A stretch of 64,000 bases of DNA from Escherichia coli (GTDB lineage Bacteria > Pseudomonadota > Gammaproteobacteria > Enterobacterales > Enterobacteriaceae): assembly GCF_030384885.1 (NCBI RefSeq), contig NZ_CP128613.1; one strand, given 5' to 3'. The position numbers were made by a program, and so were the translations under genes. Below, piece after piece: positions 31,896 to 39,386 of the stretch; positions within the stretch are counted from its first letter, which is position 1; the number at the start of each line of letters is the position of its first letter. The notes below the pieces were generated by a model, which worked only from the letters and a program-made list of their open reading frames with translations, did no database searches and was not told the origin of the DNA.

Positions 31896-32780
31896 TCAAT
31901 CATGTATTTTTACAGCAAGACAACCACGAACAAATTCAGGATTAAAATGTTTTACCGACTCCCCAACATAACCCAAATCAAGCGAACTAATTTGTGCCAT
32001 TTCTTTCTCTGTCAGTGAGAAATCCCAGATAGCAAAATTTTCTTCGATACGCTGTTGATGTGTCGATTTCGGAATAACGACCACTCCCCGTTGAATATTC
32101 CAACGCAGAATGACTTGAGAAATCGATTTTTGATGGGCATCTGCAATACTCTGAAGCAGATTATTTTCAAAGGGTTTATGTCTTCCACCGCCTAACGGAG
32201 CCCATGCTTCAGGCTTCACGTTATAATACTTCATGGTTGCCAGCGCCTCTGGTTGGGCAAAATAGGGATGCAACTCGACCTGGTTGACCATCGGTTTAAC
32301 TCTTGCCGTTTCACAAAAGTTCGCCAGAACATGAGGATAGAAATTGGAAACCCCAATTGCTTTTAATTTGCCCTCTTCATAGGCATCTTCGAGTGCACGC
32401 CACGCACTGAAATAATCGCGCATAGCCTGGTGCAATAAATAGAGGTCGAAGTATTCTAGTCCCGATTTTTTTAATGACGCTTCAATACCTGCTTTTGCCG
32501 TATCCTGATTCAACATATCCTGCACCCACAATTTAGACGTTATAAATAACTCATCTCGGGTACATAAACCTTCAGATATAGCTTCACGAACGGCTTCACC
32601 GACGGCATCTTCATTACCGTATACCGCTGCAGTGTCGATGAGTCGATAACCCGTGCGGATAGCGTTCAACACTGACTGTTTGCACACGTTTTTATCGGTA
32701 ACCTGAAAAACACCAAATCCCATCATCGGCATTTTCAGATTGTTACTTAATACGGAAAATTCCACTGTCAGTCCCTCCAT
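31896..32780 (-). CDS. Aldo-keto reductase family oxidoreductase
   Basis: AKR motifs (GYRLIDTA…YGNE; LxxxGxxYxDLYLLH; IPKS). True start may be the internal MPMMGFG (~32732). Confidence 0.8.
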   Translation of the reverse strand: MEGLTVEFSVLSNNLKMPMMGFGVFQVTDKNVCKQSVLNAIRTGYRLIDTAAVYGNEDAVGEAVREAISEGLCTRDELFITSKLWVQDMLNQDTAKAGIEASLKKSGLEYFDLYLLHQAMRDYFSAWRALEDAYEEGKLKAIGVSNFYPHVLANFCETARVKPMVNQVELHPYFAQPEALATMKYYNVKPEAWAPLGGGRHKPFENNLLQSIADAHQKSISQVILRWNIQRGVVVIPKSTHQQRIEENFAIWDFSLTEKEMAQISSLDLGYVGESVKHFNPEFVRGCLAVKIHD

Positions 32781-33013
32781 TAGGCATGAACAATGAGTCT
32801 ACGTTAAAACGTAACCTCAAATTAGTATGTGGATTTTGATATCACTTATGCAAAAAATTCATTAATAATGTAGGACTGAAACCTCTCTATTTTCGGGGAC
32901 AACGAAGCAGACGCTACCAGTGCTTTTGCCTTCGCCCTTGCTGTTTTTGATACACTTAGGGCCCAGGGCATAACGAAAATGTGCGATATGACAAAGAATT
33001 AACGGAGAATGTG

Positions 33014-33871
33014 ATGATCAGGCAGAAGATTCTACAGCAGCTCCTGGAGTGGATTGAGTGCAATCTTGAGCACCCTATTTCAATCGAAGATATCGCACAG
33101 AAATCTGGCTACAGCAGACGCAACATCCAGCTTCTGTTCCGAAATTTCATGCATGTGCCTTTGGGAGAATACATTCGCAAACGAAGGCTTTGTCGTGCCG
33201 CCATTCTTGTCCGGCTCACCGCGAAATCTATGCTTGATATTGCACTCTCTTTGCATTTTGATTCACAGCAGTCATTCAGCCGCGAATTTAAAAAGTTATT
33301 CGGCTGCTCTCCCCGTGAATACCGCCACCGTGATTATTGGGATCTCGAAAATATCTTCCCTTCTTTTTTAATACGTCAACAGCAAAAGACGGAGTGTAGA
33401 TTAGTCAACTTTCCTGAGACACCTATTTTTGGCAATTCATTTAAATATGATATTGAAGTGTCGAATAAATCACCGGATGAAGAAGTCAAACTGCGACGTC
33501 ATCATTTAGCCAGATGTATGAAGAATTTTAAGACGGATATCTATTTCGTCTCCACGTTCGAACCGTCAACAAAATCGGTCGATTTGCTCACAGTTGAAAC
33601 TTTTGCCGGTACGGTATGCAAACAAACCGATTCAGAGATGTCGAAAGAGTGGACAATTAACCGAGGACTGTATGCCTCTTTCCGCTATGAAGGTGAGTGG
33701 GAGCACTACCCTGAATGGGCGCGAAACCTCTATCTGATGGAATTACCTGCCAGGGGGTTAGCCAGAGTGAACGGCAGTGATATTGAGCGATTTTATTACA
33801 ATGAAGATTTCGTAGAAAAGGATAGCAATGATGTTGTTTGCGAAATATTTATCCCTGTTCGTCCGGTTTAG
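33014..33871 (+). CDS. AraC/XylS-family regulator with N-terminal HTH and C-terminal effector domain (Rob-like); probable ykgA equivalent
   Basis: MarA/Rob-like double HTH at the N-terminus, followed by ~170 aa of extra domain. Confidence 0.75.
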   Translation: MIRQKILQQLLEWIECNLEHPISIEDIAQKSGYSRRNIQLLFRNFMHVPLGEYIRKRRLCRAAILVRLTAKSMLDIALSLHFDSQQSFSREFKKLFGCSPREYRHRDYWDLENIFPSFLIRQQQKTECRLVNFPETPIFGNSFKYDIEVSNKSPDEEVKLRRHHLARCMKNFKTDIYFVSTFEPSTKSVDLLTVETFAGTVCKQTDSEMSKEWTINRGLYASFRYEGEWEHYPEWARNLYLMELPARGLARVNGSDIERFYYNEDFVEKDSNDVVCEIFIPVRPV

Positions 33872-38245: not shown

Positions 38246-38810
38246 TGAGATAATTTCCTGATGAACGAATTAACGAACATAGGCAAACACAAATAATGGT
38301 GTCTGCTTGTCAGAAAAGCCGGGGATTTCCCGGTTTCCTTTTCCGCAGAAAAGGAAATACCTTTATGTAAGAAAGTACACCGCCACCTAATATATCCAGT
38401 GTCTGTAGCCACTCATCAGGTGGGTGGGCGCGGGATTATATTTTTATTTATGGGTAAAAATTTAGCTTTTTGTGCAAGTCATTAAATAGATACCTAAGTT
38501 ATATTTCTTACTCTGCGGACAGTGAATAATTCATTATTCAGAGTGAATAATAATGACCTGCTTTTAATTTACCACGATTGGAAATACGTCGAAGTAGGTA
38601 TATACGCCAGGATAAACCGATATATTTTTTTTGGATATTCATTTTCCTTCATCGGACTGTAAATTGCGGGGATATCGAACTTGCACGACTCATCGCAACA
38701 CTCAAACAGATTTATGAATTTCGTTCATAACCCCTGACAAATCCTGCCGTCTAATCGAGCTCTTCCCTTTACGTTATGCTTCTCATGAACGATAACGGAA
38801 GGATAACACC

Positions 38811-39386
38811 ATGCAAAAAGTAAAACTGAACAACGGTATTGAAATGCCCCTGTTGGGCTTTGGTGTATTTCAGATGACCGATGCCGCCGAATGCGAAAGA
38901 GCGGTCATTGACGCTATTAACACCGGTTATCGACTGATTGACACCGCCGCCTCTTATCAAAATGAAATCCAGGTCGGGAACGCACTGAAACAAAGCGGTA
39001 TCGCCCGTAACGAACTCTTTGTCACCACGAAACTCTGGTTGCAGGATACCAGTTACGAAGGGGCCAAAGCCCAGTTCGAACGCTCTCTGAATCGACTGCA
39101 ACTTGATTACGTTGACCTGTACTTGATTCACCAGCCATATGGCGATGTCCACGGAGCCTGGCGTGCCATGGAAGAGCTGCAACAGGCCGGTAAAATTCGC
39201 GCTAATGGCGTCAGTAACTTCCATCCTGACCGACTGGCAGACCTTATCGCTTTTAATAACGTCGTTCCGGCGGTAAACCAGGTTGAAGTTAACCCTTTCA
39301 ATCAGCAGCTGCAGGCCGTTCCCTGGATGCAAAGTCGTGGCATTCAGCCAGAAGCCTGGGCACCGTTTGCGGTTACAGGGCGGTAA
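38811..39386 (+). pseudogene. Truncated aldo-keto reductase (N-terminal ~2/3 only)
   Basis: 191-aa ORF paralogous to the AKR at 31896..32780 but ending before the C-terminal third; may correspond to a ykgQ-type fragment. Confidence 0.6.

Follow-up and report, generated by a model that had tools for sequence, protein, structure and literature searches.

The closest described relatives of the two aldo-keto reductases (AKRs) considered here, which are encoded in a 64,000-nucleotide stretch of Escherichia coli DNA (contig NZ_CP128613.1; hereafter, the window), are the small DkgA/YvgN/TM1009-like AKRs represented by PDB entries 4MHB, 1VP5, 3D3F and 1MZR. Both proteins, denoted AKR1 and AKR2, share with these the PF00248 domain and the motifs of the Asp-Tyr-Lys-His catalytic tetrad; the AKR2 of the window differs from them in that it covers only two thirds of the fold. 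The best solved relative of AKR1 is 1VP5 (287 bits), and full-length AKR2 is nearly identical from end to end to 4MHB (585 bits), a solved 'putative aldo/keto reductase' whose function is unassigned. Against the NCBIfam equivalog model of DkgA, AKR1 and AKR2 score 234 and 262 bits (cut-off 425), and against that of DkgB, 161 and 177 bits (cut-off 327). Since these values lie below the cut-offs, neither protein is one of the E. coli 2,5-diketo-D-gluconate reductases as named.

The same chromosomal locus, between rclC and ykgR, is found in E. coli K-12 (MG1655), and the gene loss to be described resembles the deletion-and-replacement events of other variable E. coli loci in its sharp breakpoints, its incoming DNA of low guanine-cytosine (GC) content, its single origin in one clade, and the mosaic flanks left by later recombination. 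It differs from them in that no insertion sequence (IS), integrase, transfer RNA site or target duplication is present at the junction, and its mechanism is one that we infer. A literature search covering FdeC in combination with aldo-keto reductase and ykgA, as well as ykgP and ykgQ, turned up no account of the history of this locus.

In the window, AKR1 (31896..32765, minus strand) and AKR2 (38811..39372, plus strand) face outward on either side of a Rob-like regulator gene and the adhesin gene fdeC (eaeH). The best explanation of the data as a whole, with a probability of about 0.9, is that the two are old paralogues and that AKR2 was cut by a single replacement of 2,278 bp with 677 bp. A sequence-only reading of the stretch had taken the pair to be the scar of a duplication or recombination event. 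The truncation of AKR2 is indeed a genuine rearrangement scar, an instance of ordinary genome decay; it did not come from AKR1 or from a pairing of the two genes, and it involves neither AKR1 nor the regulator nor fdeC.

The truncated reductase and its breakpoints

In BLASTP, AKR1 and the stump of AKR2 align over 187 aa with E = 4e-62, far beyond chance; the identity is 49% (70% positives), compared with the approximately 45% estimated by eye in the sequence-only reading, which had also placed the two homologous open reading frames (ORFs) and their strands correctly. Between full-length AKR1 and the full-length AKR2 of another strain, the identity is 44%. AKR1 matches PF00248 with 150.5 bits (cut-off 24) at profile positions 18-289 of 291, corresponding to a full-length (alpha/beta)8 domain, and the AKR2 ORF matches positions 3-193 of 291 only, which is short of the full domain. 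The earlier description of one intact and one truncated gene, facing outward around the regulator and fdeC, therefore holds. The start of AKR1 is most likely the GTG at 32765, which gives a protein of 289 aa, the length of its orthologues, whereas the ATG at 32780 would give 294 aa. The motifs LIDTA, DTAAVY, TSKLW, LLHQ and PKSTHQQRIEEN were placed in AKR1 by alignment, and both the tetrad and the C-terminal (A/P)KSxxxxRxxEN pattern are present; the catalytic and cofactor-binding functions of these motifs are general knowledge of the AKR family.

The AKR2 stump consists of codons 1-187 and lacks the last 96 residues of the 283-aa protein found in strain JJ1887 and in 4MHB. Homology stops at 39372, and the last four codons of the open frame, reading VTGR, and its stop codon (39384-39386) are foreign. 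The C-terminal sequence of AKR2 was absent from every frame of the window in tblastn searches with AKR1 and full-length AKR2 as queries, which indicates that the truncation is real and is not a frameshift; no complete ORF exists in another frame. RefSeq, through the Prokaryotic Genome Annotation Pipeline (PGAP), already flags the gene as a pseudogene, 'aldo/keto reductase, incomplete, missing C-terminus', and nothing found here challenges the current understanding.

The breakpoints were located by searching positions 38400-40100 of the window against 5,426 complete E. coli genomes. The matches fall into three classes, extending over the whole query, ending at query position 973 (window 39372), or ending at query position 397 (window 38796). 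The layouts of these classes differ, in agreement with the earlier remark that the region is rearranged among strains. JJ1887 belongs to the class ending at 39372. It carries an intact 283-aa AKR2, followed by a third reductase (AKR3), a LysR regulator of 297 aa (LysR1), and the LysR regulator that is shared with the window (LysR2). Pairwise alignment places the breakpoints between 39372 and 39373 and between 40049 and 40050, with 677 bp in the window (39373..40049) in place of 2,278 bp in JJ1887. The left junction is sharp (...CCGTTTGCGG joined to TTACAGGGCGGTAAGCG...), and the AKR2 frame reads through it into the new DNA until the stop. The GC content of the 677-bp segment is 40.3%, compared to 50.5% for the lost segment and 48.4% for the whole window.

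On this basis, the ancestral layout would have been of the JJ1887 type, with fdeC, then AKR2, AKR3 and LysR1, and then LysR2. One replacement event would have taken out 2,278 bp, with AKR3 and LysR1 in full and the 96 codons at the 3' end of AKR2, and would have put in their place 677 bp of foreign, low-GC DNA with a gene for a small secreted-type protein. The mechanism may have been an illegitimate, possibly homology-anchored replacement during acquisition of the foreign DNA. AKR3 (JJ1887 locus 10290-11279; 329 aa) is an unrelated AKR with approximately 25% identity to AKR1 and AKR2. In Dickeya and Serratia, the gene directly after the AKR2 orthologue is a LysR gene in convergent orientation (295-297 aa), and the Dickeya LysR protein is 90% identical to LysR1. 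Because AKR2 and LysR are directly adjacent in these genera, AKR3 looks like a later insertion into the AKR2-LysR module.

The AKR2 stump is very probably non-functional, because about a third of the triose-phosphate isomerase (TIM) barrel and the C-terminal cofactor-binding motif are gone. The AKSVRKERMEEN motif, at residues 227-238 of intact AKR2, lies past the breakpoint and hence is missing from the stump; we take it to be the counterpart of the clamp for the 2'-phosphate of NADPH described for AKRs. The partner genes AKR3 and LysR1, the cognate LysR gene, have also been lost in the window. Furthermore, the window copy carries the substitution I132N (codon 132, window 39204-39206) in the AIGVSNF motif, which shows no variation among all the orthologues examined or in the copies of O55:H7, 2020CK-00188 and JJ1887. 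This substitution is likely a sign of decay or relaxed constraint after inactivation.

The alternative that survives best is that the short ORF is itself functional, either as a truncated enzyme or as a regulatory or dominant-negative fragment kept by selection. The frame is open for 191 codons behind an intact upstream region, the catalytic tetrad (D44, Y49, K74 and H107) is kept, and the differences between AKR2 alleles are mostly synonymous (16-17 synonymous versus 3 nonsynonymous). However, the match to barrel profile positions 194-291 and to the C-terminal cofactor-binding motif is missing, the window copy is altered in the otherwise invariant motif, and PGAP calls the gene a pseudogene. 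The surplus of synonymous changes is more readily accounted for if the alleles diverged in intact copies of the gene and were imported later, as an O55-like allele also occurs in a strain with the match pattern of the intact gene. We consider a functional stump very unlikely.

Still less probable is the reverse direction of the event, in which the 677-bp layout would be ancestral and the 3' end of AKR2, AKR3 and LysR1 would have been inserted later elsewhere. In favour of this direction, the intact block is very uniform, being at least 99% identical in 1,664 of 1,904 matching records. Such an insertion, however, would have to supply the 96 C-terminal residues exactly in frame, completing a protein whose identity to its orthologues in other genera is 90-94% over the full length, and the pairing of AKR2 with LysR is kept in Dickeya and Serratia. 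The 677-bp segment, moreover, is low in GC, and its gene is sporadic and lies beside integrative elements in other genera.

Age and origin of the reductase pair

The database search placed the two reductases in separate orthologous groups. The AKR2 group consists of 283-aa orthologues with 88-94% identity in Klebsiella, Gibbsiella, Dickeya, Tatumella, Yersinia, Serratia, Erwinia and Pantoea; the proteins of Yersinia, Dickeya, Serratia and Pantoea are 90-94% identical to AKR2. The AKR1 group consists of 289-aa orthologues with 80-88% identity in Enterobacter, Salmonella, Klebsiella, Kluyvera, Vibrio, Marinomonas and Marinobacterium, and those of Klebsiella, Salmonella, Kluyvera and Vibrio are 80-85% identical to AKR1. 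The cross-identity between the groups is 42-46%, and they form two deep clades in a neighbour-joining tree constructed from an alignment of both. The PDB chain 1VP5, which carries the annotation 2,5-diketo-D-gluconic acid reductase, has 59% identity with AKR2 but only 46% with AKR1, and joins the AKR2 side of the tree; it is presumably from Thermotoga maritima. The two orthologous groups, their deep clades and the position of 1VP5 indicate that the split between AKR1 and AKR2 is much older than Escherichia. Judged from these comparisons, AKR1 and AKR2 are ancient paralogues that appear to stand by chance on either side of the regulator/fdeC pair.

If the pair had instead been made by a local inverted duplication, or by recombination between copies with the truncated copy as its scar, the homology of the two genes, their mutually inverted orientation around the regulator/eaeH unit, and the tendency of the region to rearrange would be accounted for. 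Among the solved structures, moreover, E. coli DkgA (1MZR) gives each protein a lower score (197 and 211 bits) than the group of the other does (255 bits for AKR1 against the AKR2 orthologue 4MHB). The sequence identities run the other way, however, as the orthologues in other genera are 80-94% identical to their counterparts and the pair only 44-49% to each other, so that the two are not mutual closest relatives. The DNA comparison gave the same picture. With a word size of 7, the similarity between the two genes was confined to a single high-scoring segment pair of 110 bp at 72.7%, with a longest exact match of 11 bp, which is judged far too short for homologous recombination. The 1.5-kb flanks had nothing significant in common, and no inverted-repeat structure was found around the regulator/fdeC unit. 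The flanking-DNA alignment proposed earlier as a check thus speaks against duplication, since the similarity extends neither through the genes nor into the flanks.

The GC contents of AKR1 and AKR2, 42.8% and 51.1%, differ by 8 points. No partner AKR was found near the orthologues of either gene in the Klebsiella, Vibrio, Dickeya and Serratia loci examined; the AKR1 orthologue lies in a LysR/hydrolase/MFS (major facilitator superfamily) cluster in Klebsiella and stands alone in Vibrio. In addition, the breakpoint that truncates AKR2 is on the side away from AKR1 and is accounted for by the other event. Taken together, the sequence comparisons effectively refute the duplication or recombination-scar reading of the pair, which we regard as highly improbable. 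The occurrence of similar genes on both sides of a virulence-associated adhesin is accordingly no evidence of duplication.

Distribution of the allele and the incoming segment

Among the 5,426 complete genomes, the 677-bp segment is present as a single chromosomal copy with at least 99% identity in 315, and the intact 2,278-bp block (at least 80% of the segment) in 1,888; the 5' sequence of AKR2, of either kind, is present in 2,213. The 315 carriers are mostly O157:H7 and O55:H7 strains, with a few others that include the strain of the window. Most other genomes belong to the third class, in which similarity ends at 38796, just upstream of the AKR2 start, and a K-12-like example lacks window positions 38797-43450 entirely. 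That the truncation is an assembly or annotation artefact of one genome is refuted by the identical junction and insert in 315 independently sequenced complete genomes; nothing specific favours such an artefact beyond the internal-stop flag on the nearby, open rclC ORF, which shows that the record is not free of errors.

At the junction, the sequences of the window, O55:H7 RM12579 and 2020CK-00188 are exactly the same, and the inserts are 99.6-99.7% identical, which together support a single origin of the 677-bp allele. The AKR2 stump upstream of the junction shows a different pattern. The window copy is 99.5% identical to JJ1887 and only 96.3% identical to O55:H7, with 17 synonymous and 3 nonsynonymous codon differences. 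When window positions 38811-39372 are compared with O55-type positions 12812-13372, the differences are mostly synonymous and reach to within 2 bp of the junction. At least one strain with a match ending at the breakpoint (H127), the pattern of strains with the intact gene, has an O55-like AKR2 allele too. The simplest reading is that the stump alleles differ because the flank was later exchanged by homologous recombination, to the very limit of the homology. Such mosaicism is typical of E. coli. The allele would thus have arisen once, and its left flank would have been reshuffled afterwards by homologous recombination.

Several observations weigh against the replacement as reconstructed here. 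Its direction is deduced solely from the principle that a gene severed within a domain must descend from a complete one. The best DNA matches to the 677 bp are only 75-79% identical, and no near-identical donor was found; at the segment itself, there is no transposase, target-site duplication or integrase to explain the mechanism. The 3.7% difference in the AKR2 fragment between two strains that share the junction requires the later recombination in the flank, up to the junction, to be invoked. Finally, the stump is still open with its upstream region intact and few disabling changes, and a 191-aa product may be expressed.

Inside the 677-bp segment, the sole ORF of at least 70 aa encodes a protein of 118 aa (39579..39935, plus strand) with a signal-peptide-like N-terminus and two conserved cysteines. 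The dN/dS value (the ratio of nonsynonymous to synonymous substitution rates) of approximately 0.13 indicates that it is a real gene under purifying selection, and the three strains of the truncated type with an annotation that was consulted all carry the same protein sequence. The family to which it belongs is enterobacterial and has no name, and searches of Pfam, NCBIfam, PHROGs and PADLOC gave no match. Its homologues amount to only 17 clusters among 5.8 billion proteins, are approximately 80% identical, and occur in Siccibacter, Enterobacter asburiae, Klebsiella and Cronobacter. The Siccibacter gene adjoins a P4-like primase with Ogr/Delta, and the Enterobacter gene adjoins a phage-integrase island. 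At the Siccibacter locus, DNA homology of 75% extends over 39395-39933, which is nearly the whole segment. The Siccibacter and Enterobacter loci were rejected as the direct donor, their best DNA matches being just 75-79% identical. The AlphaFold model of the protein is a confident all-beta structure with a predicted local distance difference test score (pLDDT) of 87. A Foldseek search of this model against the PDB gave no match at E <= 0.001 and only a weak LolA/LolB-like resemblance (template modelling score, TM, ~0.39).

The ORF and repeat scan of the 677-bp segment found no transposase, terminal inverted repeats, direct repeat bracketing the junctions or target-site duplication, and no mobile-element signature appeared among the Rfam, PHROGs and PADLOC matches. 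As transposase, terminal repeats and target duplication are all absent, the segment does not have the features of an insertion mediated by an IS or a transposon. Across the right junction lies a hairpin (40003..40052, plus strand; arms 40003-40019 and 40037-40052) with a folding energy of −25 kcal/mol (z = −6.45; none of 200 shuffled sequences was as stable), located 67 nt past the stop of the 118-aa ORF. It was not called a terminator by the consensus scan, and a one-base bulge hid it from the repeat search. The hairpin could be the terminator of the cassette, or it could be tied to the recombination event.

The two junctions serve as a clean, single-origin structural marker of the O157:H7/O55:H7 group and its relatives, a lineage in which the conserved AKR2-AKR3-LysR module has been lost and an uncharacterised secreted protein gained. 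It is conceivable, if rather unlikely, that the selected event was the gain of this putative secreted beta-protein beside the FdeC adhesin rather than the loss of the enzyme. If so, the 118-aa protein might serve the group as a factor of its own in the envelope or in host interaction, and the simultaneous loss of AKR2, AKR3 and LysR1 would be either collateral damage or itself adaptive. Beyond correct annotation, the importance of the locus is small.

Neighbouring genes and the K-12 locus

Positions 30000-42000 of the window match the chromosome of E. coli strain 2013C-4282 (NZ_CP027579.1) with 100% identity. In the RefSeq annotation of the region, rclR and rclABC come first, then an aldo/keto reductase gene on the minus strand and a gene for a helix-turn-helix protein on the plus strand. 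Next are fdeC on the minus strand, the incomplete aldo/keto reductase and a hypothetical protein, both on the plus strand, and a LysR regulator on the minus strand; genes for an alpha/beta hydrolase and an NADH-dependent flavin oxidoreductase, and then ykgR and ykgM, complete the order. AKR1, the intact 289-aa enzyme (150 bits to PF00248, with orthologues of 289 aa), is separated by a divergent intergenic region of 248 bp (32766..33013) from the AraC-family regulator with a GyrI-like C-terminal domain (33014..33871, plus strand), which is the full-length form of the K-12 pseudogene ykgA. The Pfam search identified an N-terminal double helix-turn-helix (HTH_18/HTH_AraC) and the GyrI-like C-terminal domain in this regulator. 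It thus has the same two-domain architecture as Rob (RobA) and aligns end to end with the RobA model, but scores 196 bits against an equivalog cut-off of 380; it is Rob-like but not Rob. The divergent arrangement suggests that the regulator and AKR1 may be a regulator-target pair, a pairing that is not conserved in the Klebsiella or Vibrio loci.

The adhesin gene fdeC (33992..38245, minus strand) encodes an intact inverse autotransporter of 1417 aa. Between strains, it varies far more than any other gene of the locus, with 93.1-94.4% identity to JJ1887 and O55:H7, compared with 97-99% for most of its neighbours, which is consistent with diversifying selection or recombination on a surface adhesin. 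The divergent intergenic region between fdeC and AKR2 (38246..38810) contains the start of the K-12-type deletion at 38797. Beyond the 677-bp segment, the retained regulator LysR2 (40224..41150, minus strand) is divergent from the alpha/beta-hydrolase and flavin oxidoreductase genes and is only 35% identical to the lost LysR1.

The MG1655 locus shows four independent lesions, all of them independent of the 677-bp replacement. A deletion of 4,654 bp (window 38797-43450) has removed AKR2, the position of the 118-aa gene, LysR2, the hydrolase and most of the flavin oxidoreductase, and an IS3 element stands in place of window 33675-37369, truncating both the regulator gene, ykgA, and the adhesin gene, eaeH in K-12. 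AKR1 is cut by two internal deletions (window 32025-32115 and 32165-32749). The blocks aligned on either side of these deletions (K-12 locus 5630-5798 against window 31896-32764) have 9 bp and 2 bp in common at the junctions, which suggests that these deletions were microhomology-mediated.

The sequence-only reading had pointed to the K-12 fragments ykgP and ykgQ for comparison with the reductase pair, and this was apt for one of them. The pseudogene ykgQ (317439-317567), which is among the AKR1 remnants, is a 129-bp 3' remnant of AKR1 aligning to 31896-32024. The pseudogene ykgP (313716-313805), however, is a 90-bp 3' remnant of the NADH-flavin oxidoreductase gene (from 43451) and not of AKR2 or any other AKR; the alignment of the locus revealed no AKR2 remnant in K-12. 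The equivalences of the K-12 pseudogenes are thereby corrected, with ykgQ assigned to AKR1 and ykgP to the flavin oxidoreductase.

At the other end of the locus, rclC (31143-31736) is flagged in RefSeq as a pseudogene with an 'internal stop', whereas the window, with a sequence 100% identical to that of the record in this part, gives an uninterrupted RclC of 197 aa. The flag seems to be an annotation error or to have been carried over from an earlier version of the sequence.

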